From: Candidatus Iainarchaeum sp.
GTDB taxonomy: Archaea; Iainarchaeota; Iainarchaeia; Iainarchaeales; DTGL01
Assembly (NCBI GenBank): GCA_026413945.1
Contig: JAOAJX010000004.1
Span: forward strand, 32,483 to 96,482
Direction of reading: 5' to 3'
DNA length: 64,000 nucleotides
The stretch's first letter is position 1. Each line of letters starts with the position of its first letter. Below, one piece after another: positions 3,872 through 58,928 of the stretch. The notes beneath the pieces are model-generated. The model saw only the letters and a list, made by a program, of their open reading frames with translations. It was not told the DNA's origin and searched no databases. The translations under genes and the position numbers were made by a program.

Positions 3872-5671
3872 ATGAAAAAAGCATTTGTCTGGGATCCTGT
3901 GATGAGATCTTCAGCAATAAAATACGATCCTTGTATATTATTAAATGGAAAAATATGTAAAACTAAATGTGATAATTGCAAAATTACTCTTATCGCAGAT
4001 AGGTTTTTAGGTAAAGAATTCCAGCAAGAGATACTTGGAAAAATTGGTGGGAGCAAAGGAAGATACCCGTATGTTATTATCGCCGATAGTTTAGGTTGTA
4101 ATCTGCATTGTTGGTTCTGTTACGCATATAAATTTCTTACAAAAGAAAGTGCAGAAGCAAATAAATGCGACATAGCTTATGTTTCTCCTAAAGAACTTGC
4201 AGAACAATTTGGTTGCAAAATCAGAAAATTAGCAGACTTTCAAGAATTACTCAGAGTTGTTGAATCAAAGAATCTCAACGAACAGGTAAAAAAAGCGGCA
4301 ATTAAACATTTACAGATGAAATTACCTTTAATGAGGATCAGATTATCGGGTGGTGAACCAACATTCTCAACTAAAGATACATTGTTTGAACCTCAAGATG
4401 AAAATCTAATCAAATCTACAGTTATGTATTGGCTCTCTTTTTTTAAAGAATTGGATAAAATTATTGGTCTTTTAAAAAAAGATGGAAAATTAAATATTGC
4501 CAATAAAATGGATGTTAAAAATAAAGAGTGGAAAGGAGATTTACCGTTTCCTACATGTCTTGGAGAAAGAGAAGGAAGATTGAATATAAGATACGACACA
4601 AATGGTATCATATTTGGCAACAAAGAAATTACCAAGATGTTTATCGGTGGACTTTTTAAATTATTCAAACAAAATAAGCTAAATCATATATTCATAGAAT
4701 TTGATTATTCTTTTAAAGGTGCGACACCTGTTGAATACGAATGGTCTCAAAGGAGAGGTTTACCAGTTGACGCTTCAAAAATCTCTTTTGATTATAAATT
4801 AAAAGAACACCCACAAATTCCTGGTTATCTAAATATAATCAAAACTATTACTGAGCATTGCAAAAAAGATGTAGAGTTTAATAATTGTGCGGGTATTACT
4901 GTAGAAAGAGGTATAAACCACAACAAAAGTTTTAAAACATACCTGAATTGCAAAGAATCACTTAATTGGGAAAATTTTTCTAAAAAAAGTAGAATTCGAT
5001 TCTCAGTCGTAGATAATCCGATAGAAATGTTTAATTGGAGAAATTATACGCCTAAAAGCTGTTTTATTAAGAACGGTGCGAGCATCAAGGTAATATCAGG
5101 AGAAGCAGAATTTGATTTGAAAAATTGTCCGGATATGAACAAATTTTCTGAATTTGTCCAGAACCATCCAAATTGTTACTTTGTAATATACCCAGTTGAG
5201 ACCAAAGTTAATCTTCAAAAAATTACAAAAATAGGAAAAATAAAACTTGATTCTTCCCAAACGACATTAATAGACATGCAGTTTTCTGGTTGGGTCTTTT
5301 CTGGTACTAAAGAAAATTGGAAAATTGCATTGGAAAAAAGAAAGTGGGGTGTTAAGGAAAAAAACCGTTCTCTTTGGCAAAAAATAAAACCTGGGGATAT
5401 TGTATTATTTTATGTTACTACCCCTATAAGTCGAATTATGGGTTTTGGAAAAGTTAAAGAAACTTCTGAAGAAAATTCCCTTTTGTGGCCAGATGAAATA
5501 AAAGAGAATAATCTAAAATATCCACTAAGAATAATTTTTGAAGAGATGAAATGTATTGAAGATTGGGAAAATGGTGTAAAACCTTTTGGTTTAGAAATAA
5601 AACACGGCATAAATCAAGTTAACAATTATAAAACATTCGAAAAAATAGTCAATACTTTTAGAAATGAATAA
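3872..5671 (+). CDS. Radical SAM domain protein fused to a C-terminal EVE/PUA-like (modified-base reader) domain
   Basis: CxxxCxxC 'GCNLHCWFCY' at nt 4096-4122, the 'RIRLSGGEPTF' SAM-binding glycine motif, and 'NIRYDTNG'. The C-terminal approximately 130 aa (from ~5279) read 'W..WGV...R..W.KIKPGDIVLFYVT..SRIMGFGKV', an EVE-type signature. Confidence 0.7.
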   Translation: MKKAFVWDPVMRSSAIKYDPCILLNGKICKTKCDNCKITLIADRFLGKEFQQEILGKIGGSKGRYPYVIIADSLGCNLHCWFCYAYKFLTKESAEANKCDIAYVSPKELAEQFGCKIRKLADFQELLRVVESKNLNEQVKKAAIKHLQMKLPLMRIRLSGGEPTFSTKDTLFEPQDENLIKSTVMYWLSFFKELDKIIGLLKKDGKLNIANKMDVKNKEWKGDLPFPTCLGEREGRLNIRYDTNGIIFGNKEITKMFIGGLFKLFKQNKLNHIFIEFDYSFKGATPVEYEWSQRRGLPVDASKISFDYKLKEHPQIPGYLNIIKTITEHCKKDVEFNNCAGITVERGINHNKSFKTYLNCKESLNWENFSKKSRIRFSVVDNPIEMFNWRNYTPKSCFIKNGASIKVISGEAEFDLKNCPDMNKFSEFVQNHPNCYFVIYPVETKVNLQKITKIGKIKLDSSQTTLIDMQFSGWVFSGTKENWKIALEKRKWGVKEKNRSLWQKIKPGDIVLFYVTTPISRIMGFGKVKETSEENSLLWPDEIKENNLKYPLRIIFEEMKCIEDWENGVKPFGLEIKHGINQVNNYKTFEKIVNTFRNE

Positions 5672-8422: not shown

Positions 8423-9688
8423 TTAACTTTTTTCATTTTGAATATTGACCTTGCTTTTTTCTTCGCCGAGACTAAGCAGATAGTTTTTTGCACCATCAAT
8501 GTCATCAGCTTCCAACATGCTGAAAAGTTTTCTTGCATCAAATGCGTTATTGAAGTTTGTTTCGCCAAGTTTTTTCTCGAGGAGTTCATAGCCAAACTCC
8601 AGCACTGATTTATTTTTTTCTTGCAATGCAACTAGCTCAGAGAGTTTTTTTGAAAAAGATTGCGCGAAAAAGTCTGAATCTATAGATATTATTGCTTTCT
8701 TGGAATACTCATCCAAAATATCCTTAATATCAATGCTTTCAGGAGTATGGCCTTTTGCCAAAGATCCTGAAAGCTTGATTTTCACAAGTGGCATTTTGCA
8801 GTATTGCTCCGATGTTATCTTACCAAGAACCTCCCGCAGTCGCTTTGCGACAATGTTTTTTTCAGCGTTTTCAAACTCTAATTTTTCATATATAAAAGGC
8901 CTTTGATTTGGCAAATGCAAAAAATCAAGTGCTTTGCTTTTTGTATCCATGATGTATATGCCTTTTGGCTTTTTGGCTTCTAGGCGCTTCATCTGCGTAA
9001 GCATTGTAGAGCCGGTGAGAATTAAATGCTTATTACCCTGCTTTACTTCATTTTGCCAGTGAAGATGCCCATTGACTATGATGTCAAAGCCTTCTGGAAG
9101 TGAGTCAATGGTTAGCGTAGCAATCATTTCATCATCAAATGGCAGAAATTCCTTGAATGATTGATGCAGCACAAGAATGTTAAATGCTTTTGGTTCTGGC
9201 TTTGGGTTCCAGGCGCGGAGCACGTCTAAGGCCTTCTTTTCTGGAACACCGCCAAGCCCATGAATTGCGATGAGTTCTCCATTTTGCTCAAAAAGAGCCC
9301 TTTCACCATGCAGATATGCTATAAACCCAGCTTCTTCAAAAAGCTGCAGATAATTGGCATAATCACGGCTTCTAAACTCATGTGTGCCATGGATTGCAAA
9401 AATTGGAATGCCATTGAGCTTAAGCTCTCGCTCTTTTTCAGAGCTAATTTTCTTTACAATGAGCAAATTTTTGTTGGCATTTTTTGCGATTGAAAAAACT
9501 GAAAAAGCCTGAATTAGATGCAATGACTCTGGAACTTCCTTATCAAATATATCGCCAGCAATAACTATTGCTTGTGCGCCTCTTTCAACAGCCAGCTTCA
9601 TTGCAGCAAAAGCATTCTCAAAAGCCTCGTTTTCGCGCCCCTTCTGGGAAAAGCCAAGATGGAAATCTGACAAAAAAGCAATCTTCAT
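8423..9688 (-). CDS. Calcineurin-like metallophosphoesterase, Mre11/SbcD-like DNA repair nuclease
   Basis: 'MKIAFLSDFHLG', 'GDIFD' and 'IHGTHEF' phosphoesterase motifs plus a C-terminal capping-like domain; start moved to the internal ATG to avoid overlap; no Rad50 adjacent. Confidence 0.55.
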   Translation of the reverse strand: MKIAFLSDFHLGFSQKGRENEAFENAFAAMKLAVERGAQAIVIAGDIFDKEVPESLHLIQAFSVFSIAKNANKNLLIVKKISSEKERELKLNGIPIFAIHGTHEFRSRDYANYLQLFEEAGFIAYLHGERALFEQNGELIAIHGLGGVPEKKALDVLRAWNPKPEPKAFNILVLHQSFKEFLPFDDEMIATLTIDSLPEGFDIIVNGHLHWQNEVKQGNKHLILTGSTMLTQMKRLEAKKPKGIYIMDTKSKALDFLHLPNQRPFIYEKLEFENAEKNIVAKRLREVLGKITSEQYCKMPLVKIKLSGSLAKGHTPESIDIKDILDEYSKKAIISIDSDFFAQSFSKKLSELVALQEKNKSVLEFGYELLEKKLGETNFNNAFDARKLFSMLEADDIDGAKNYLLSLGEEKSKVNIQNEKS

Positions 9689-9713
9689 GAAGTATATGAA
9701 GCTAAATTTTAAT

Positions 9714-10658
9714 TTAAATATATGCTGTATAACCAACTTTTTCGGTTTTGCCCAGCAGAATTTTTTCTAAATTTGCCATACCTGCTTTTGACATCAGCAA
9801 AAGAGGTCTAAAAATCGGAATTTTGATATTTGAATCTAACAAAAATTGCCCACAAAAATTAGTTTTTGAAATTTTTCTTTCTGGGACTACAAGTGCAGAA
9901 ATTCCCTCCTCGTTTATAAGGCAATCAATATCTGCAAAATTAGTTACTTTAAAATTACGCCAAAGATTCCATTGCGATAAAATCTCGAGTGCATTGCCAA
10001 TATTTCCAGCATTAGAGCCAGTAACTGGAAAAACATTGCAGCCTTTGCGCATCATGAGCCAAGCGCAAATAGCGCTCTCAATCTTATTTTTATCGCCCTC
10101 AAACAGAACAGCCACATTACCTTCTACACCTAAAGGTAAACCACCAAAGCATTTTAGCTCATTAAAGTAAAATAAAGCTTTATCATTTTCTATATCTATG
10201 TGAAGCCTATAATCTGGTTTTGAGAGATTAACTTTAAGGCCGTAAGTTTTAACAACATCGGCTCCAACAAAAACTTCAGCATCCTTCGAAGTAAAACTGT
10301 GCTTACCAGAACGTGAGCATTCAATTGCAAAAGTGCCATCTTTTCCAGAAAAAAGATCCCGGGATATTAAGGCTAAGTCTTCAATATCTTGAAAAAAGTA
10401 CTTATGAGCAATTGCAACAGAATAGATCCCAAAAATTTTCTTCAATATTTTAATACAAGTCTCAGATGCATCTGATTGTAAAAGAAGTCTATCGCTTAAA
10501 GTTTGAATATACCTAAAAGCAATTTGATTACGCTTTAGAGCACACCCAACATTGCTGCGTAGCTTCTTTACAAAGTAGCGCCTAGTCGGAGCGCTTTTTA
10601 GGAATATGGAGGGAGAAAATTTAGCCATTATTAGTTGTCCTTCGCTATTGTAAGCCAT
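9714..10658 (-). CDS. THUMP-domain protein, ThiI-like tRNA modification enzyme lacking an obvious PP-loop
   Basis: N-terminal ferredoxin-like/THUMP pattern resembling ThiI; no SGGxDS motif seen in the C-terminal half. Confidence 0.45.
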   Translation of the reverse strand: MAYNSEGQLIMAKFSPSIFLKSAPTRRYFVKKLRSNVGCALKRNQIAFRYIQTLSDRLLLQSDASETCIKILKKIFGIYSVAIAHKYFFQDIEDLALISRDLFSGKDGTFAIECSRSGKHSFTSKDAEVFVGADVVKTYGLKVNLSKPDYRLHIDIENDKALFYFNELKCFGGLPLGVEGNVAVLFEGDKNKIESAICAWLMMRKGCNVFPVTGSNAGNIGNALEILSQWNLWRNFKVTNFADIDCLINEEGISALVVPERKISKTNFCGQFLLDSNIKIPIFRPLLLMSKAGMANLEKILLGKTEKVGYTAYI

Positions 10659-10747
10659 AATTAGACTCTGTCAGCAAACATTTAATTTTAAATATGTTAT
10701 GTAATTCCAATTTATTTAATTTTTGTCACCACTCAGGGGGTTGAAAT

Positions 10748-12697
10748 ATGAAAAAATGGGTTACTGACAAAGATAGTAAAGGTTATTACTGGCCGAGCGA
10801 AGAAGCAAAAAGCTACGCTTGGGTCAAAGATGAGAAAATATATGAAGAAGCTGCAAAAGACCCTATAGCTTTTTGGGACAAAAAGGCAAGAGAAGGAATA
10901 AGCTGGTTCAAGCCTTGGAAGAAGACATATTTGTGGAAACCGCCATATTACAAATGGTTCATAGGCGGCAAGCTAAATGTATGTTACAATTGTGTTGATA
11001 GGCATGTTGAATCTGGCAAGGGGAAAAAGCCTGCAATAATATGGATACCGGAGCCAATGAACGAAGAGAAAAAAGTATTGACATTTGAAGAGTTGCACAA
11101 AGAGGTACAGAAGTTTGCAAATGTTCTTAAAGAGCTTGGAGTAAAGAAAGGCGACCGCGTAACCATATATCTCCCTATGATACCCGAAGCACAAATTGCC
11201 ATGCTTGCATGTGCAAGAATAGGCGCTATACATAGCGTGGTTTTCTCTGCATTTAGCCCGGAGTCTTTAAGAGCAAGAATAGATGACGCAAAGTCAAAAG
11301 TGCTCATAACTTCTGATGGTTACTATAGACGGGGCAAAATAGTGGAACTTAAGAAAAATGCTGATGAAGCAGTGAGTGGAAAGAGCCCAATAAAAAAGGT
11401 AATTGTTGTTAAGCGTGCAGGCAATCAGGTTGAAATGAAAAAAAAGCGCGATTTCTGGTGGCATGAGTTAATGGCAAAAGCAAAGGAAAAGTGCGCACCA
11501 GCAAAGCTTGACAGTGAACAGCCGCTATTTATTCTATACACAAGTGGCACAACGGGAAAGCCAAAAGGTGTAATTCATGTCAATGGCGGTTATATTGTAA
11601 TGGCTTATTGGACATCAAAGTATGTATTTGATCTTCATGATGAAGACATATTTTGGTGTACTGCAGATATTGGTTGGGTAACTGGGCACACTTACAACTG
11701 CTATGGCATATTAGCAACCGGATCAACACTGCTCTTCTACGAAGGAACACCTGATTTCCCAGACAAAGATAGATGGTGGAAGATAGTTGAAGAAAACAAA
11801 GTAACAATCTTTTACACTGCACCAACCGCTATAAGGATGTGTGCCCAATGGGGTTCTGAGTGGCCGGCAAAGCATGACCTTAGCTCATTGAGGCTCTTGG
11901 GCACTGTTGGTGAACCGATAGATCAACAAGCTTGGTCATGGTACTTTGAAAACATCGGTGGCTCTAGATGTCCGATTGTAGATACTTGGTGGCAGACAGA
12001 AACTGGAGCAACACTCATAACAACTCTTCCGGGCGTAGGTCCATTCATACCCACTGTAGCGGGCAGGACTTTTCCTGGCGTAACTGCAGATATTGTAGAT
12101 GCAGAGAAAAACAGTGTTAGCGGTGATATGGGTGGCTACCTTGTGCTAAAGAGCCCTTTCCCGCCAAGCTTGCTTAGAGGTCTTTGGAAAGCTGAAAAGA
12201 AGTACATTGAAACATATTGGCTTAGCTACGACAAAGAGTTTTACTCTACCAATGATGGGGCAAGGCGTGTTGATAATAAGTATATAAGGATAACTGGCAG
12301 GGTTGACGACGTAATGAATGTATCAGGCCATAGAATATCAACTGCAGAGATTGAAAATGCAATAGCTTCGCATAAGAACGTTGCTGAGTGTGCAGTTGTT
12401 TCTCAGCCGCACCCCATAAAAGGCGAAGCTCCGTTTGCTTTTGTGGTTTTGAAGGAAGCGCAGCCAAGCGAACAGCTAAAGAATGAGCTCTTTGAGACAG
12501 TAAGAGTTAAAATAGGGCCAATTGCAAAACCAGAGGTAATAGCGTTTGCGGACGCACTGCCAAAAACAAGGTCTGGCAAAATCATGAGAAGGATGCTTCG
12601 CGCTCTTGTAACGAATCAGCCAATTGGCGATACAACAACGTTGCTTAATCCTGAAAGCATAGAGCAACTAAAGAAAGTAGTTGGATATAAGGGGTGA
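10748..12697 (+). CDS. acs: Acetyl-CoA synthetase (AMP-forming)
   Basis: 'YWTSKYVFD...FWCTADIGWVTGHTYNCYGILATGSTLLFYEGTP' and the 'YTSGTTGKPKG' AMP-binding motif. Confidence 0.9.
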   Translation: MKKWVTDKDSKGYYWPSEEAKSYAWVKDEKIYEEAAKDPIAFWDKKAREGISWFKPWKKTYLWKPPYYKWFIGGKLNVCYNCVDRHVESGKGKKPAIIWIPEPMNEEKKVLTFEELHKEVQKFANVLKELGVKKGDRVTIYLPMIPEAQIAMLACARIGAIHSVVFSAFSPESLRARIDDAKSKVLITSDGYYRRGKIVELKKNADEAVSGKSPIKKVIVVKRAGNQVEMKKKRDFWWHELMAKAKEKCAPAKLDSEQPLFILYTSGTTGKPKGVIHVNGGYIVMAYWTSKYVFDLHDEDIFWCTADIGWVTGHTYNCYGILATGSTLLFYEGTPDFPDKDRWWKIVEENKVTIFYTAPTAIRMCAQWGSEWPAKHDLSSLRLLGTVGEPIDQQAWSWYFENIGGSRCPIVDTWWQTETGATLITTLPGVGPFIPTVAGRTFPGVTADIVDAEKNSVSGDMGGYLVLKSPFPPSLLRGLWKAEKKYIETYWLSYDKEFYSTNDGARRVDNKYIRITGRVDDVMNVSGHRISTAEIENAIASHKNVAECAVVSQPHPIKGEAPFAFVVLKEAQPSEQLKNELFETVRVKIGPIAKPEVIAFADALPKTRSGKIMRRMLRALVTNQPIGDTTTLLNPESIEQLKKVVGYKG

Positions 12698-19436: not shown

Positions 19437-19583
19437 GCCGGGATGGCAGAGCGGCCCAATGCGCCAGCTTGGAGTTCTCCAAATTCTTTCTTTTTATAAA
19501 AGAAAGAAAATTTTTAATCACGAAGATAAGACCAATGAGCTGGTGTGCGCAAGCACTCGTGGGTTCAAATCCCACTCCCGGCG
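19437..19583 (+). tRNA. tRNA-Ser (GGA) with 63-nt intron (19475-19537) at canonical position 37/38
   Basis: Acceptor GCCGGGA/TCCCGGC, anticodon stem CCAGC/GCTGG with loop TTGGAG|intron|A, long variable arm GTGC-GCAA-GCAC, T-arm GTGGG-TTCAAAT-CCCAC, discriminator G; exon TTGGAG pairs with intron CTCCAA to form the BHB helix. Confidence 0.75.
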
Positions 19584-40541: not shown

Positions 40542-41072
40542 TTATGCCAATTTAAGGCCTTTAAGGACTGTAAATGCAACTAATGAGCCAGCTAAAGCTG
40601 TAATTAATTGCATCAAAGACATTGGAAACAAAAGAGCTTTTGGAATTAATGAAAATTGGATAAGGGTAAATGCTGAAAGCCCCAGCCATGTGGCCTTCAA
40701 AGCTGATGCCAAAACAGCCTTTATGTAAAAAGGCCTTTTGGCCATTTTTTTGAATACAAAAACTAGTGCAAAGTTACCCAACCAGATGAAGGGCACTAGC
40801 AAGATAACATATCGTGTCAAATTGCCGAAAAGTAGGCCTGCGCTTACAACACCCAATGAAGGCAGGAGAACTACTGGTAAGGTGTAATGCAGTTTAAGGC
40901 GCAATGCTGAAACAACAAGCATAGTATTTACAAGAATACCAACGATAAGCTGTTGTTGCGAATGACTCAAAACAAAGGGCAAAAAAAAGCAAAAAAGGCC
41001 ATAGCAAATGCCTTCGAGCATCTTATAAAACTCAGAGTATTTGGAGATACCTGAATATGAAAAGGATTGCAT
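40542..41072 (-). CDS. Hypothetical membrane protein (possible ECF-type transporter S component)
   Basis: Five or six TM helices; weak resemblance only. Confidence 0.3.
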   Translation of the reverse strand: MQSFSYSGISKYSEFYKMLEGICYGLFCFFLPFVLSHSQQQLIVGILVNTMLVVSALRLKLHYTLPVVLLPSLGVVSAGLLFGNLTRYVILLVPFIWLGNFALVFVFKKMAKRPFYIKAVLASALKATWLGLSAFTLIQFSLIPKALLFPMSLMQLITALAGSLVAFTVLKGLKLA

Positions 41073-41103
41073 TTAGCTCACCCATAAATAAATGCAGCTC
41101 TGC

Positions 41104-41119
41104 TTTAAATATTTTGCTG
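41104..41119 (+). promoter_or_regulatory. Candidate TATA box for the hyd operon
   Basis: 'ctttaaatattttgc' about 24 nt upstream of the hydC ATG at 41134, which may be a leaderless transcript. Confidence 0.25.
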
Positions 41120-41133
41120 TTTTTCTTTTCTTT

Positions 41134-41553
41134 ATGGAAAACAAAAAGAAAGCCCTGCTTTTAAACGAACTTGGAAAAGCCCAAAAAAGGGAGGGGCGAC
41201 TTTCCAAAAAAGAGCTTGCAAAGATTGCTAAAAAAGTCTGTATGCCTGAAAACGAGGTTTTCAGCACCGCTACCTTTTATTCTTTCCTCACACTTGAAAA
41301 GAGAGCTAAGCACAGCATACTTTTGTGCAATTGCCCAGCAGAGTACCTTAGAAGCTCAGACAAAATATCCAAATATTTGGAAAAAAAGTTGAAAGTAAAG
41401 CTAGGGCAAACTACAAAGGACAAAAAAATTTATCTCGGAATGACCTCTTGCATTGGCCTCTGTGATAAAGCACCTGCTTTGTTGGTAGATGGAAAACCCG
41501 TTGTTAATGTAACAACTAAAAAAATTGATGAACTGCTGAGGTCGCTCAAATGA
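41134..41553 (+). CDS. hydC: [FeFe]-hydrogenase small electron-transfer subunit HydC (NuoE/HoxE-like thioredoxin-fold 2Fe-2S)
   Basis: 'SCIGLCDKAPALLVDGKP' NuoE signature; the first Cys pair is an atypical 'CNC'. Confidence 0.6.
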   Translation: MENKKKALLLNELGKAQKREGRLSKKELAKIAKKVCMPENEVFSTATFYSFLTLEKRAKHSILLCNCPAEYLRSSDKISKYLEKKLKVKLGQTTKDKKIYLGMTSCIGLCDKAPALLVDGKPVVNVTTKKIDELLRSLK

Positions 41554-42671
41554 CAGAGAAAAAGATACTTTTTGACTCAGCTCTCAAAGGAGCGGGAATT
41601 GCTTTAAGTAAAACACCTACAGAAGTAATTGAGGTAGTAAAAAACTCTGGTTTAAGAGGTCGTGGGGGTGCTGGGTTTCCAACAGGCCTTAAATGGGAAA
41701 TAGCAGCAAAATCACAAGGTGAACACTACATCATATGCAATGCAGATGAGGGTGAACCTGGTACTTTTAAAGACCGTCTTATATTATCAACAGTTCCATT
41801 AAATGTAATTGAAGGCATAATAATTGCAAGCCATGCTGTTGGGGCCAAGCAAGCATATATTTACCTTCGTGGAGAATACAACTATTTCTTGCCGAAGATC
41901 AGAAAAGCAATAAAAAAAGCAAGGCCACTAATGGAAAAAATAGAGCTAAATTTAGATATTGTGGTTGGTCAAGGAGCCTATATCTGTGGGGAGGAAACTG
42001 CGATATTGAATTCTATAGAGGGACATAGGCCAGAACCAAGAAAAAGGCCGCCATATCCTGCTGAGAAAGGCCTATATGGTTCTCCAACAGTTGTAAATAA
42101 TGTTGAGACCCTCGCAATGGTTCCATTGATATTTCTCGGCATATTTGATCCAAAAAAGCGCCTTTGCTCACTTTCTGGTGATGTTGAAAAACCAGGAGTT
42201 TTTGAAATACTCGAAGGCAAACAAATAGGGAAAATATTGGAAGAGGCTAAGCCAATAGGCATACCAAAAGCGATTTGTTTTGGTGCTTCCGGTGGCATAA
42301 TGCCGTATGATCCTTGCATGGAAATAACTGAGGAGAATATCAAGGAAAGAGGCTGTTTCTTTGGTTCTGGGACAATAATTATTGTGAATCACACGCATTC
42401 CATAGTAGAGCTTTGCGAAAGCATACAAAAGTTTTTTGTGCATGAGTCATGCGGCTACTGCATGTCATGCCGCGAAGGTTCAAAAAGGATGCTTGAGTAT
42501 ATTAAAAGAATTTCGGCTGGAAAGGCCACAATGAAAGACCTCAATAAGTTAGAAGAGCTTTGCAATTTTGTATCTGTTGCATCTTTTTGTGCTTTAGGCA
42601 GGTCAATGCCATTGCATATATTAACAGCATTGAGACATTTCAGAGAGGAGTTTGTGAGAAAATGCAGATAA
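41550..42671 (+). CDS. hydB: [FeFe]-hydrogenase flavoprotein subunit HydB (NuoF-like; FMN/NADH-binding, 4Fe-4S)
   Basis: 'GLRGRGGAGFPTGLKW', 'CNADEGEPGTFKDR' and 'ESCGYCMSCREGS'. Confidence 0.8.
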   Translation: MTEKKILFDSALKGAGIALSKTPTEVIEVVKNSGLRGRGGAGFPTGLKWEIAAKSQGEHYIICNADEGEPGTFKDRLILSTVPLNVIEGIIIASHAVGAKQAYIYLRGEYNYFLPKIRKAIKKARPLMEKIELNLDIVVGQGAYICGEETAILNSIEGHRPEPRKRPPYPAEKGLYGSPTVVNNVETLAMVPLIFLGIFDPKKRLCSLSGDVEKPGVFEILEGKQIGKILEEAKPIGIPKAICFGASGGIMPYDPCMEITEENIKERGCFFGSGTIIIVNHTHSIVELCESIQKFFVHESCGYCMSCREGSKRMLEYIKRISAGKATMKDLNKLEELCNFVSVASFCALGRSMPLHILTALRHFREEFVRKCR

Positions 42672-44362
42672 CTATTGATGGAAAAATTTTAGAATTTCAC
42701 AAAGGCCAAACAATACTTGATATTGCACGCACAAATAAGATTGAGATACCAACGCTATGTTACCACAAGATGTTAAAGCCCGAGGGAAGATGTAGGGTCT
42801 GCTTAGTAGAAGCAAACAGTAAAATTGTAACTGCTTGTGATACACTTGCAGAAGACAATATGCAAGTAGTTACTACTTCTGAAAGAATTAGAAGGTTAAG
42901 GTTAGAGGCACTAAATCTGATAGCCTCGACTGTGCCAAAAGAAACCTTAAGGAAAGAAAATGAATTAACTAAAACGATGCGCCTTGTTGGATTTAAGAAG
43001 CCGACTTATAAGCATAATATTGTAAAGGACAAAGATAAGTCAAGTGCAGCCATTTGGAAGAGTATGGATGAATGCATTGTTTGCGGTAGATGCGTTCAAG
43101 CCTGCTCAAAAATGCAAACAGTTAACGCTCTCTCATATATGGGTAGGGGATATTCTACAATAGTTGTCGGCAGTGAAAACCAGCCACTAAAAGATACAAC
43201 TTGTGTCTCCTGTGGCCAATGCTCTTTATTTTGCCCAACAGATGCAATAACCGAAGCTTCTGATATAAGCAAAGTAGAAAAGGCCTTAAGATTGAAAAGT
43301 AAGATTAAGGTTGTTCAAGTAGCACCATCTGTAAGGGTTTCGGTTGGAGAATTTTTTGGCCTTGAACCGGGCACGATAGTAACAGGGCAGATAGTCGCTT
43401 CATTGAAGAAGCTTGGTTTCGACGCAGTTTTTGATACTAATCTATCGGCAGATCTCACTATAGTGGAGGAAGCGAAAGAATTTGTGGACAGGTTCAAAAA
43501 GGGTAATTTGCCAATGTTTACAAGCTGCTGTCCAGCGTGGATTGATTTCTGTTGTGAATTTTATCCGGAATTTATAAATAAACTTTCAAATACCAAAAGC
43601 CCGCAGATGATGCTTGGTGCTTTGATAAAAACATACTATGCAAAAAGGTTAGGTTTAAAGCCGAGCGATATAATAAGCGTTTCAATAATGCCGTGTACTG
43701 CAAAGAAAAGGGAGGCTAAACTGAAGAACATAAATGCCTCGAATGTAAAAGACATTGATTATGTGCTAACAACGAGAGAACTAGGTCAATGGCTTAAGAG
43801 CAAAAAAATCAACCCTGCAAAGCTTTTGCCCGCTGAATTTGATTGCCCCCTCGGAGAAAGCACAGGCGGGGGTGCACTTTTTGGTGTTACTGGAGGTGTT
43901 ATGGAAGCAGCATTAAGGACTGCATATTTTTATATTAAAGGCGAGGAAATGAAAGATCCAAAAATAGAGCCGATTAGAGGAACTAAAAGCTTAAGGGAAT
44001 TTGAAGTGAACATCGGTAAAAATAAGGTTAAAGGCGCGGTTGCACATACTTTGGAACGAGCAAGAGAGATTATAGAAAGGATAAAAAAAGGTGAAAGTTT
44101 TGATTTTGTAGAAGTTATGGCTTGTCCTGGCGGGTGTATTGGCGGCGGCGGTCAACCAAAGCCAGTTGATTGGGAAGCGATTGAGAAAAGAGCAAAAGCA
44201 ATTTACTCAATAGATGAAAACAAAAAGATAAGGTTATGTCACCAAAACCCCGATTTGAAGAGGGTTTACGAAACATTCTTGCAGAAACCTGGATCAAAAA
44301 AAGCAAAAGCATTGCTTCATAGAAAATACCCTAAGAGAGGTAAACCGCAACAGCAAGATTAA
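42662..44362 (+). CDS. hydA: [FeFe]-hydrogenase catalytic subunit HydA
   Basis: N-terminal 2Fe-2S and 2x4Fe-4S ('CIVCGRCVQAC', 'CVSCGQCSLFCP'); H-cluster motifs L1 'TSCCPAW', L2 'MPCTAKK' and L3 'MACPGGCIGGGGQP'; start at ATG 42662 overlapping the hydB stop. Confidence 0.85.
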   Translation: MQITIDGKILEFHKGQTILDIARTNKIEIPTLCYHKMLKPEGRCRVCLVEANSKIVTACDTLAEDNMQVVTTSERIRRLRLEALNLIASTVPKETLRKENELTKTMRLVGFKKPTYKHNIVKDKDKSSAAIWKSMDECIVCGRCVQACSKMQTVNALSYMGRGYSTIVVGSENQPLKDTTCVSCGQCSLFCPTDAITEASDISKVEKALRLKSKIKVVQVAPSVRVSVGEFFGLEPGTIVTGQIVASLKKLGFDAVFDTNLSADLTIVEEAKEFVDRFKKGNLPMFTSCCPAWIDFCCEFYPEFINKLSNTKSPQMMLGALIKTYYAKRLGLKPSDIISVSIMPCTAKKREAKLKNINASNVKDIDYVLTTRELGQWLKSKKINPAKLLPAEFDCPLGESTGGGALFGVTGGVMEAALRTAYFYIKGEEMKDPKIEPIRGTKSLREFEVNIGKNKVKGAVAHTLERAREIIERIKKGESFDFVEVMACPGGCIGGGGQPKPVDWEAIEKRAKAIYSIDENKKIRLCHQNPDLKRVYETFLQKPGSKKAKALLHRKYPKRGKPQQQD

Positions 44363-54788: not shown

Positions 54789-56039
54789 TCAGCTGGCAGT
54801 ACAAATGCCTTCTTTGCATACGCAAGCTGTTTCTGGCTTAGGCCTTATAACTTGAAGGCACATTTGCCTAATAGCTGAGCAGTTTAGTTTAAGTTTGCTT
54901 GGGTTTACGCATTCCCAGTAAGCACCCGCATTTTCTGGGCAACAATTCGTGCTAACCCATGCGCAGTCAGCATCGGAAATGCAATCTTTAGGCCCAGTTC
55001 CGCTTTTCTTATCTTCTATATCAACTACAACCCACAAGGTTCTAAGCTTCTTTTTTGGCTCTGGGTCAAACTCAAGCTTTATTAGCTTTTCTACCTCTGC
55101 TTGGGGAATTCTGTAAGAAAGTTTTGCAAATTTGCCTAAATTTGTTGGATAGAAAAAAGGGCCTTGCCATAATCTTTGGAAGGCCTCTGATTCCTTCTCT
55201 GTGAAGCCTATGCTGAGCATCTTAGCGTTGAGATCGGGATAATTTGGTGTTTCTGCAAGCTTAACTTCTATGCTCTTGCCTGCTGGAAGAACATCTAAAG
55301 AGCCTAAAAAGTATTTGCCTGAAATGAAATTAGGATCTTCTTTAACTGAAATTGTAACATCATACACATCACAATTGAAATTGTTTGTGACCTTGGCCTT
55401 CATGCTCTTTATGTCATAGTCAACTTTAACATTGTTATAAAACTTCATCTCTCCTTCGTAGAAAAGGAATCTTGCATCTGTTCCATTATAGCTCAGCAAA
55501 TCTGCTTCGACATCATTTAGGTCTGATAATATTGACTCAAGTGGCACAAGACTTTTTGTTGCTCTGCTGATTAGTTTCTTTTCACCTAAGATTTTTACAT
55601 TTTTCCATTCTGCTTTGCTTCCAACTAACTGGGCTTCTGGATAAGTTATTGTTGGCCTGCCATCAGCAAAAACAGCCCTTGCGCTGAAGCTTTCAACTTT
55701 GCCACCGTATTTGCTCGAATGAATATATACAACAGGCTGTTTAACGATTAAAACTTCTTCTGGCCTCGAAGTCAAGATCCAAGAAGTGTTATTATCGCAG
55801 CCGGCTATTACGCCCCATTCGTGAACCTCGTAATCAGCAAATTGCCGTGGAGCAATCGTTGGCGTTTGTCTTGGTGTAGTGGGTGGTTGCGGCGATGTGG
55901 TTGGCACATAGCCAGAATCATCGTCTATTGGCGCACCTTCGTTTATATGCATAAGAAAGTATACTGCCACAATTGAAAGCAAAATAAATGCCAAGGCAAA
56001 AATACCCAAAATGCGTGGGTTATTTTTCAAGGAAGCCAT
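54789..56039 (-). CDS. Hypothetical secreted/anchored protein with PT-rich linker and C-terminal Cys cluster
   Basis: N-terminal TM, 'PTTSPQPPTTPRQTPT' linker, and eight C-terminal Cys. Confidence 0.4.
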   Translation of the reverse strand: MASLKNNPRILGIFALAFILLSIVAVYFLMHINEGAPIDDDSGYVPTTSPQPPTTPRQTPTIAPRQFADYEVHEWGVIAGCDNNTSWILTSRPEEVLIVKQPVVYIHSSKYGGKVESFSARAVFADGRPTITYPEAQLVGSKAEWKNVKILGEKKLISRATKSLVPLESILSDLNDVEADLLSYNGTDARFLFYEGEMKFYNNVKVDYDIKSMKAKVTNNFNCDVYDVTISVKEDPNFISGKYFLGSLDVLPAGKSIEVKLAETPNYPDLNAKMLSIGFTEKESEAFQRLWQGPFFYPTNLGKFAKLSYRIPQAEVEKLIKLEFDPEPKKKLRTLWVVVDIEDKKSGTGPKDCISDADCAWVSTNCCPENAGAYWECVNPSKLKLNCSAIRQMCLQVIRPKPETACVCKEGICTAS

Positions 56040-58436: not shown

Positions 58437-58928
58437 GTGAATCATTCAATAAAGGTTGGCTTCAGCTTTGGGCTTACATCCGCAGTAATAACTACGCTAG
58501 GCCTAATGATGGGGCTCTATGCAAGCACAGAATCAAAGGCAGTTGTTATAAGTGGCGTTTTACTCATAGCAACTGCTGACGCATTATCAGATTCTTTAGG
58601 AATACATCTTTCGGAAGAGGCGGAGAGTAAGCATACTAAAAAAGAAGTATGGCAGTCAACATTTTCTACATTTATTTTCAAATTCCTCTTTGCATGTGTG
58701 TTTGTCCTGCCGTTATTAATATTTGATCTATACCTTGCTGTTATTGTAAACATAATTCTTGGCTTCTTTATGCTCGGAATATTCAGCTATGCGATTGCTT
58801 CAGAGCAGAATATTAAGCGCATATTAGTTGTCATTGAGCACTTTGCAGTTGCAATCTTGGTGCTAATACTTACATACCTTATAGGCCACTTTATTAACTG
58901 CTGGGTTGAGAGCAAACCAAACATTTAA
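58437..58928 (+). CDS. Hypothetical membrane protein (possible VIT1/CCC1-like)
   Basis: Four or five TM helices; weak similarity only. Confidence 0.3.
   Translation: MNHSIKVGFSFGLTSAVITTLGLMMGLYASTESKAVVISGVLLIATADALSDSLGIHLSEEAESKHTKKEVWQSTFSTFIFKFLFACVFVLPLLIFDLYLAVIVNIILGFFMLGIFSYAIASEQNIKRILVVIEHFAVAILVLILTYLIGHFINCWVESKPNI

Follow-up and report, generated by a model that had tools for sequence, protein, structure and literature searches.

What kind of enzyme does an archaeal [FeFe]-hydrogenase operon encode when its gene order is that of the electron-bifurcating enzymes but its flavoprotein subunit is unusually short? We addressed this for hydCBA, a three-gene operon at positions 41134-44362 of a 64-kb stretch of DNA (64,000 nucleotides of contig JAOAJX010000004.1, Candidatus Iainarchaeum sp.; hereafter the window). 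From the cofactor sites that can be read in its sequence we favour, with moderate confidence, the view that the operon specifies a vertically maintained, functional and soluble HydABC-type [FeFe]-hydrogenase of the DPANN superphylum, most likely a non-bifurcating NAD(H):H2 oxidoreductase. An earlier note on this DNA had described a trimeric HydC-HydB-HydA operon, and this was borne out by three open reading frames (ORFs) that run in the same direction, overlap their neighbours and match the expected Pfam families:

41134-41553, + strand: hydC, 139 aa, NuoE/thioredoxin-like [2Fe-2S] subunit (PF01257, E 1.4e-32)
41550-42671, + strand: hydB, 373 aa, minimal NuoF/Nqo1-like flavoprotein (PF01512, Complex1_51K, E 1.2e-45; PF10589, NADH_4Fe-4S, E 1.8e-26)
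42662-44362, + strand: hydA, 566 aa, catalytic subunit of a group A [FeFe]-hydrogenase (PF02906, Fe_hyd_lg_C, E 3.4e-91), with further Pfam domains PF02256 (Fe_hyd_SSU), Fer2_4 and two Fer4

The hydC and hydB genes share ATGA (4 nt), and the overlap of the hydB stop with the hydA start, which had been pointed out before, is real and spans the 10 nt ATGCAGATAA. Start codons agree with those of the NCBI proteins (566 aa for HydA and 139 aa for HydC, at 100 % identity and coverage), and the motifs previously read in HydC (SCIGLCDKAP) and HydB (GGAGFPTG and ESCGYCMSC) were all located in the translations. This tightly overlapping hydC-hydB-hydA order is the gene organisation by which HydDB defines group A3, as had been proposed for it. 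It also favours a rival explanation, namely that the operon encodes an electron-bifurcating (or confurcating) group A3 HydABC in which NADH and reduced ferredoxin are oxidised together to yield H2. We consider this unlikely in view of the three subunits, as detailed below.

HydB retains the flavin mononucleotide (FMN)/NADH site (GRGGAGFPTG, residues 37-46; NADEGEPGTFKDR, 64-76; GQGAYICGEE, 140-149) and the ligands of a single [4Fe-4S] cluster (C301, C304, C307 and C347, with ESCGYCMSC at 299-307). Pfam found only PF01512 and PF10589 in this protein, and neither an N-terminal [2Fe-2S] domain nor a C-terminal domain for two [4Fe-4S] clusters. When HydB was aligned to 7t2r_B, 2fug_1 and 7q4v_B, its C-terminus coincided with the end of the Nqo1 core, and only the central part of the longer chains was covered (HydB residues 17-370 match 146-524 in the A. 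mobile chain of 597 aa, and 19-370 match 178-554 in the T. maritima chain of 626 aa). The C-terminal domain for clusters B3 and B4 is lacking, as the protein stops three residues past NADH_4Fe-4S and contains no CxxCxxCxxxC motif. The N-terminal [2Fe-2S] cluster (B5) is absent, the core beginning at residue ~17 as against 146 in 7t2r_B, and so is the B2/Zn site, where Ser replaces the residues equivalent to A. mobile C438 and C476, and the stretch with H525/C531/C536 is missing. At the discriminating positions HydB reads GEPG-T-F-K-DR and GQGA-Y-ICGEE, that is Thr, Lys and Tyr (T/K/Y); Nqo1 has S, K and Y there, and in the chains of bifurcating enzymes (A. mobile, 7q4v and 9bov) A-x-M and F are found. 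These traits were common to all 10 minimal HydB sequences, a minimal operon being one with a HydC of ~140 aa, a HydB of ~360-375 aa and a HydA of ~560 aa that lacks the [4Fe-4S] cluster with a His ligand (FS4C).

It is these features of HydB that separate bifurcating from non-bifurcating enzymes in the literature. Bifurcating enzymes have Ala or Glu together with Met where non-bifurcating ones have Thr or Ser together with Lys, Ser or Ala, and Phe where the latter have Tyr (Losey 2020, PMC7311640). Clusters B2-B5 are missing from non-bifurcating homologues (Schut 2022, PMC9304861), and every characterised bifurcating enzyme has the B3/B4 domain, which non-bifurcating ones lack (Furlan 2022). 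The earlier description of the operon as potentially electron-bifurcating is therefore not upheld, as HydB is without B2-B5, the Ala/Glu-x-Met pair and the Phe, and carries the T/K/Y signature of non-bifurcating enzymes.

The same traits were followed through 80 bacterial loci, taken from among the matches listed in a scan of a genome collection with the HydA alignment (41-46 % identity). Within these, long HydB proteins (~595-665 aa, with some larger fusions) always combined two ferredoxin-type motifs with A/M and F, and the few T/K/Y HydB proteins, which came from a Syntrophus metagenome-assembled genome (MAG; locus L022), a Parachlamydiales MAG (L050) and few others, never had C-terminal Fer4 motifs. 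Neighbour-joining (NJ) trees, a distance method used here with 100 bootstraps and limited sampling (79 cores for HydB), recovered the window's clade as monophyletic at 100/100 for HydA and for HydB alike. Minimal operons formed one clade, with a support of 83 in the HydA tree and 100 in the HydB tree, which was composed of nine archaeal loci, L050 and a locus labelled only 'bacterium' (L088). All T/K/Y HydB proteins, those of the window and of the Syntrophus MAG included, likewise fell into one clade at 100/100; this grouping with HydB of the Syntrophus-type non-bifurcating enzymes speaks against bifurcation. The Parachlamydiales locus (JAFGFA010000020.1) has a HydA of 563 aa without FS4C, a T/K/Y HydB of 365 aa and a HydC of 137 aa.

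The three H-cluster signatures previously claimed for HydA, as well as its N-terminal [2Fe-2S] and two [4Fe-4S] sites, were corroborated by motif position and Pfam domain. TSCCPAW lies at 287-293, MPCTAKK at 343-349 and MACPGGCIGGGGQP at 486-499, the Cys residues of the H-domain being C289 (relay), C290, C345, C488 and C492; these motifs fit the L1 (TSCCPxW), L2 (MPCxxK) and L3 (ExMxCxxGCxxGGGQP) patterns, from which the four Cys ligands of the H-cluster come. The [2Fe-2S] site is formed by C33, C44, C47 and C59, the two [4Fe-4S] sites by C138/141/144/148 and C181/184/187/191, and the C-terminal part is a small-subunit-like domain. It had been suggested that careful alignment might reveal missing H-cluster Cys residues; however, aligned residue by residue to 8a6t_A, 7q4v_A and CpI, HydA keeps all four Cys ligands and the Cys proton relay, in addition to the Glu/Glu/Arg/Ser proton path and the pocket Lys and Met. 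For the relay, path and pocket residues we looked for equivalents of CpI C299, E279, E282, R286, S319, K358, M353 and M497, and found C289, E/E/R in IVEEAKEFVDR, S in KSPQ, K in MPCTAKK, and both Met. The H-cluster Cys residues are invariant in our HydA alignment (A1), in which the clade has diverged to 59 % identity, and HydA scores 480.5 bits with the NCBIfam model TIGR02512 ('[FeFe] hydrogenase, group A'; cutoff 405.95). In two HydA proteins of 48 % identity from the context of locus L087 (P0012 and P0013), alignment A1 shows TSCSPGW at columns ~312, with Ser where the L1 motif has its second Cys, a position that provides a [4Fe-4S]H ligand.

The [4Fe-4S] cluster with a His ligand (FS4C, also A4) is missing from HydA, because there is not a single Cys between residues 60 and 137. 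Its motif, H-x3-C-x2-C-x5-C, is kept by Thermosipho and Omnitrophota HydA and absent throughout the window's clade in alignment A1; in T. maritima HydABC this cluster connects two protomers. Its loss is a further argument against a bifurcating enzyme, although the closest solved chain to HydA, 8a6t_A (500.8 bits), does belong to a bifurcating complex.

HydC differs from its relatives in the site of cluster C1:

41320-41346, HydC residues 63-71: shifted Cys motif

With SCIGLCDKAP at residues 105-114, the Cys residues of HydC are C65, C67, C106 and C110, which gives C-x-C...C-x3-C and not the canonical C-x4-C...C-x3-C; in an alignment to HydC and NDUFV2 chains of the PDB, the canonical position of the second Cys (70) is Glu. 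Across the Diapherotrites-type clade, the Cys at +2 was present and the canonical Cys at +5 absent in 17/17 HydC proteins, while the first Cys was missing from three of the 17 and the third from one (P0247, P0255 and P0256). C-x4-C was kept in 19/19 outgroup proteins, and Woesearchaeota-type and bacterial HydC are canonical. HydC thus appears to be a structural, NuoE-like partner with a C1 site that has been remodelled and, across the clade, is partly eroding. Ligands that are non-canonical here, or lost in relatives, would be difficult to reconcile with bifurcation models that require cluster C1.

By homology to complex I and the solved HydABC structures, we infer an electron path, a dependence on NADH and a direction of reaction for the enzyme. 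NADH would pass a hydride to FMN in HydB, from which the single [4Fe-4S] cluster of that subunit would take electrons onward one by one. These would proceed to the N-terminal [2Fe-2S] cluster of HydA, through its two ferredoxin-like [4Fe-4S] clusters and to the H-cluster, where protons would be reduced to H2; the reverse route would be possible, and the path would have no branch to ferredoxin. As HydB is without B2-B5 and HydA without the His-ligated cluster, the complex would have no ferredoxin-handling module, and would therefore release H2 only at very low H2 pressure, with an H2 consumer nearby, or else serve in H2 uptake.

A number of points weigh against a non-bifurcating enzyme. At standard conditions NADH + H+ = NAD+ + H2 runs uphill, and characterised non-bifurcating enzymes attain H2 at pascal levels only, so that NADH-driven formation of H2 is endergonic unless H2 is held there. 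Furthermore, a four-subunit pyruvate:ferredoxin oxidoreductase (POR) is encoded at 58.9-61.9 kb, 14 kb downstream of the operon. It is a source of reduced ferredoxin for which no sink is evident in the 64 kb, and it is this that speaks most for the bifurcating rival. Trimeric hydrogenases of DPANN archaea have also been labelled bifurcating group A3, both by Greening et al. (2024, Cell; PMC11216029) and in a study of Woesearchaeota (Nat Commun 2021; PMC8421398), and in the searchable library we found no paper that describes the DPANN enzymes as non-bifurcating. The criteria for non-bifurcation derive from a handful of characterised enzymes, none of them an archaeal trimeric one. The best-scoring NCBIfam model for HydA is indeed 'NADH-dependent [FeFe] hydrogenase, group A6', yet at 695.6 bits HydA misses the curated cutoff of that model (NF040763, 765). 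Finally, maturases are absent from the window and from the flanks examined, which extend up to 10 kb on each side. A non-bifurcating NAD(H):H2 oxidoreductase is nevertheless the reading that we prefer.

An [FeFe]-hydrogenase in an archaeal contig also raises the possibility that bacterial DNA was misassembled or misbinned here, or was acquired horizontally very recently. Such hydrogenases are chiefly bacterial, and the nesting of L050 and L088 among the archaeal minimal operons implies inter-domain transfer at some depth. The operon's surroundings are nonetheless archaeal, in keeping with the check for a uniformly archaeal contig that had been advised. HydA is identical to NCBI protein P0001 ('MAG: [FeFe] hydrogenase, group A [Candidatus Diapherotrites archaeon]'), whose contig is 115 kb long. 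Pfam scans, which covered nearly all larger ORFs of the window, identified genes for topoisomerase VI A/B, RIO kinase, aIF2-beta, proteasome alpha, SBDS, exosome Rrp4/41/42, L37ae, L10e, an aCPSF-like beta-CASP protein and NMD3 on the 5' side of the operon, and for Trm5/Tyw2, DUF63, a diphthine-synthase-like methylase and the four POR subunits on its 3' side. Archaeal informational genes come within 7 kb of the operon on either side (NMD3 at 35.3 kb, Trm5/Tyw2 at 49.4 kb). Moreover, the locus is syntenic in two independent Diapherotrites MAGs, GCA_038886995.1 and GCA_038895395.1 (84 and 74 % HydA identity, respectively), which share the order NMD3, helix-turn-helix protein, deaminase, Na/Ca exchanger, ScpA, endonuclease IV, a six-transmembrane-helix (6TM) protein, hydCBA, adk and MgtE.

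Composition and divergence agree with this. GC content stays even along the whole window, and GC at third codon positions (GC3) in the hyd genes is within the background. Nonsynonymous divergence (pN) of hydA, hydB and hydC from the relative with 84 % HydA identity is 0.084-0.091, next to 0.077 for adk, 0.111 for endonuclease IV and 0.155 for NMD3. Archaeal flanks, synteny in two MAGs, and pN and GC3 values like those of the background thus lead us to rule out misassembly or recent import, a scenario that we hold to be exceedingly improbable. The ratio of nonsynonymous to synonymous substitution (dN/dS), given where dS is unsaturated (0.04-0.06), was 0.048 for hydA, 0.060 for hydB and 0.038 for hydC against the 84 %-identical relative; hydCBA is kept under strong purifying selection (dN/dS ~0.05). 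The horizontal transfer that the earlier note had invoked can as such be upheld only in an old form. A recent event is at odds with composition and divergence that match the flanking genes, whereas the NJ trees do support an old one: archaea are not monophyletic within the minimal clade, and inter-domain transfer must therefore have occurred, but anciently.

Upstream of hydC, an intergenic region with a putative archaeal promoter element separates the operon from a divergent gene:

41073-41133, between the divergent genes: intergenic region, 61 nt, containing TTTAAATA at 41104-41111
40542-41072, - strand: hyd6TM-like gene, 176 aa, six predicted transmembrane helices, divergent from hydC

By direct reading of the sequence, TTTAAATA is centred ~26 nt 5' of the hydC ATG. 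Given the general layout of archaeal promoters, this would be a putative TATA box for a leaderless hydCBA transcript, and a TATA-like archaeal element at the expected distance again tells against bacterial DNA. Elsewhere in the window, Rfam places a tRNA at 19437-19583 (+) whose length of 147 nt implies an intron of ~75 nt; it was overlooked by ARAGORN and fits an archaeal genome. A 416-aa ORF at 54789-56039 (-) combines an N-terminal transmembrane or signal segment with a Cys-rich C-terminus and matches nothing in Pfam or NCBIfam; it is possibly a surface protein of the DPANN archaeon.

The search for maturases with Pfam and/or NCBIfam models took in all ORFs of ≥120 aa in which a maturase gene could reside; no ORF of the 64-kb window matched a model of HydE, HydF or HydG, in agreement with what had been noted before. 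Nor was a maturase found among the called genes in the fetched flanks of hydA, which reach up to 10 kb on each side and less where a contig ends, in the related loci L081-L088, L089 and L090. The one gene that had been singled out as radical SAM, and judged unlike HydE or HydG, lies at 3872-5671 (+) and encodes 599 aa with CNLHCWFC (CX3CX2C) close to residue 76 and an EVE/PUA-like domain at the C-terminus (~474-563). It had no Radical_SAM match in Pfam at E<0.001 and no match to HydE or HydG, and since the EVE/PUA-like domain is its sole family match, it is indeed neither of the two. A 598-aa gene adjoining hydA in L084, considered as a counterpart of this protein, proved to be unrelated.

These absences could mean that the hydrogenase is left unmatured here and has another role, such as that of an NADH:acceptor diaphorase, an Fe-S protein or a sensor, or that it is active only with a [2Fe] cofactor or maturation supplied from outside, for example by a host. 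No maturase gene occurs in the 64 kb or in the flanks of the 10 related loci, and DPANN archaea often depend on hosts. In the survey of Greening et al. (2024), moreover, 125 of the 130 archaeal genomes with [FeFe] hydrogenases were without a full maturase set, HydEFG being complete in only five, and an alternative maturation pathway was proposed by the authors. The same study, however, reports active archaeal [FeFe] hydrogenases from genomes without maturases. In addition, H-cluster ligands, Cys proton relay and surrounding motifs are invariant across the clade down to 59 % identity, and with dN/dS at ~0.05 such constraint on the active site would be unexpected in a protein that never binds its cofactor. 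We therefore think it decidedly doubtful that the hydrogenase goes unmatured or depends on outside supply, and retain a functional enzyme as our preferred reading. In the Woesearchaeota loci L089 and L090, an Elp3-like radical SAM/acetyltransferase gene (8522-10207 (-), 561 aa, and 9504-11159 (-), 551 aa, respectively) lies next to or near the homologue of the 6TM gene, which places a radical SAM enzyme beside the hydrogenase cluster in maturase-less genomes; it is probably the tRNA-modification Elp3, kept there by lineage synteny.

The 6TM protein itself gave no sequence match in Pfam, NCBIfam or the PDB, and a search of PDB sequences with its family profile was empty. A gene of this kind was named hyd6TM, and left uncharacterised, by Greening et al. 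(2024). Homologues of 39-77 % identity adjoin hydCBA or lie close to it in L081, L083-L087, L089 and L090, and each of the related archaeal loci that we examined had one beside its hydCBA. The two distant Woesearchaeota homologues (39 % identity), one of them on a 1.0-Mb contig, adjoin a minimal hydCBA or lie 4 kb from it. None was detected at the Parachlamydiales locus L050. In order to quantify this linkage we fetched 80 metagenome loci with the 6TM profile, and found hyd genes in 36/80, in 12 of the 13 loci with ≥3 kb on both flanks and in 15 of the 18 with ≥5 kb upstream. In 11 loci the 6TM gene accompanied operons with a short T/K/Y HydB and was mostly divergent; in eight it accompanied operons with a long F-type HydB and an FS4C-containing HydA, mostly directly 3' of hydA; and in L104, L109 and L166 it stood with small HydA-only genes, the fetched DNA giving no match to HydB or HydC. 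As short-HydB, long-HydB and HydA-only loci all carry the gene, its shared partner is HydA and not the NADH module, and hyd6TM would accordingly be pictured as a co-inherited accessory of HydA. At E ≤0.001 the family takes in 788 of 1.84 billion cluster representatives, all 788 without annotation, and its named members all belong to Diapherotrites or Woesearchaeota.

An AlphaFold2 model of the 6TM protein has six helices (pLDDT 88.6, pTM 0.83). The best PDB matches to this model in Foldseek were S-components of energy-coupling factor (ECF) transporters (5EDL, RibU, ThiT and PanT), with TM-scores of 0.51-0.61 and probabilities of up to 0.97, at E-values (≥0.37) that are not significant. Conserved polar residues within the membrane include H37, Q41, N49, W97, N100, K126, Q155 and T158, and suggest a ligand pocket; together with the weak S-component-like fold of the model, they suggest a protein for the binding or uptake of a small molecule rather than a redox anchor. 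Supply of riboflavin or FMN, which the presence of RibU among the fold matches brings to mind, was dropped as the leading idea on account of the HydA-only loci. As a long shot, which we would put forward with very little confidence, hyd6TM might belong to a HydEFG-independent route to the H-cluster in DPANN archaea, for example by importing a [2Fe] precursor, another ligand or a metabolite, be it from a host or from the surroundings. Such a role would explain both the tie to HydA whatever the other partners and the occurrence of all known members of the family in lineages without maturases.

Several further genes were observed around hyd6TM and the hydrogenases. A second hyd6TM paralogue of the same MAG (P0185, N3F05_05035; 194 aa, 41 % identical) is located on a 2.3-kb contig, which hints at a second hydrogenase locus. 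A VIT1/CCC1-like putative iron transporter is encoded at 58437-58928 (+), directly 5' of the gene for the POR gamma subunit, and a 52 %-identical homologue sits directly beside hyd6TM in L084 (6732-7205). Diapherotrites relatives at ~60 % identity have a Cys-rich ORF of 93-95 aa directly 3' of hydA (L085, 8219-8500; L086, 3607-3894), and a P-loop protein of 437-461 aa with a faint CobW match is encoded a few kb 3' (L085, 9486-10808; L086, 5396-6709; L084, 15960-17345). A COG2403-like GTPase and the Cys-rich ORF, which recur near hydA in L084-L086, were considered as hyd partners; we take them to be lineage synteny, because the window has no homologue of either.

With regard to what was known before, the operon belongs to a published class, and its archaeal context and missing maturases are known generalities. 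The earlier statement that [FeFe]-hydrogenases are rare in archaea is outdated, since they have been reported in 130 archaeal genomes of nine phyla (Greening et al., 2024). The trimeric 'group A3' enzymes were the most widespread there (n=44, in at least six DPANN phyla) and included 'some Iainarchaeota', the GTDB name for Diapherotrites; trimeric group A enzymes had already been described in the 2021 Woesearchaeota study. What goes beyond published work is the non-bifurcating re-reading, the remodelled HydC site and the quantified linkage of HydA with 6TM. By cofactor inventory the minimal DPANN enzymes would be NADH-only, unlike the bifurcating A3 enzymes of published metabolic reconstructions. 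Their energetics would change accordingly, as production of H2 would need pascal-level H2 and thus reliance on an H2-consuming partner, and the ferredoxin reduced by POR would be left without an assigned sink. For the building of the H-cluster in archaea without HydEFG, the hyd6TM family provides a concrete and testable candidate accessory factor.

Among known systems, the DPANN 'group A3' enzymes resemble that of the window in host superphylum, in the absence of HydEFG and in the associated hyd6TM. They are called bifurcating in the papers, whereas in 10 minimal DPANN-type loci, the window included, the cofactor inventory is of the non-bifurcating kind. The non-bifurcating enzymes of the S. 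wolfei/S. aciditrophicus type likewise consist of HydA with NuoF-like and NuoE-like parts, trimeric or fused, and their HydB has no B2-B5 and carries Thr/Ser, Lys and Tyr at the discriminating positions; it is HydB of the Syntrophus MAG L022 that shares the 100/100 NJ clade with that of the window. Their HydB is, however, only ~42 % identical to that of the window, and bacterial T/K/Y loci other than L050 keep HydA's His-ligated [4Fe-4S], a cluster that the window lacks. The window is further set apart from this type by its shifted HydC Cys ligand, an archaeal host without maturases and a HydA score below the 'A6' cutoff.

The bifurcating HydABC complexes (T. maritima 7P5H; 8A6T and 7Q4V; and the NiFe-HydABCSL of A. 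mobile, 7T2R) have homologous subunits, with 500.8 bits between HydA and 8a6t_A and 288 bits between HydB and 7t2r_B, and share with the window the FMN site and the main wire from FMN to H-cluster. Compared with these complexes, the window is without the N-terminal [2Fe-2S], the C-terminal pair of [4Fe-4S] clusters and the Zn/B2 site of HydB, has neither the His-ligated cluster nor the extra C-terminal domain of HydA, and shows T/K/Y in place of A/M/F. Nqo1 of T. thermophilus complex I aligns with HydB from end to end (287 bits) and has the same cofactor set and S/T-K-Y, HydC is NuoE-like, and the N-terminus of HydA is NuoG-like. They differ in that electrons go not to quinone but to an H-cluster domain, which is fused to the NuoG-like part, and in that HydB is ~25 residues shorter than Nqo1, with two loop deletions. 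As for the 6TM protein, it and the ECF S-components (RibU, ThiT, PanT, 5EDL) are six-helix membrane proteins of ~180 aa. With E ≥0.37, no sequence or profile match in Pfam, NCBIfam or the PDB and no EcfA/T genes seen nearby, membership of that family is not established.

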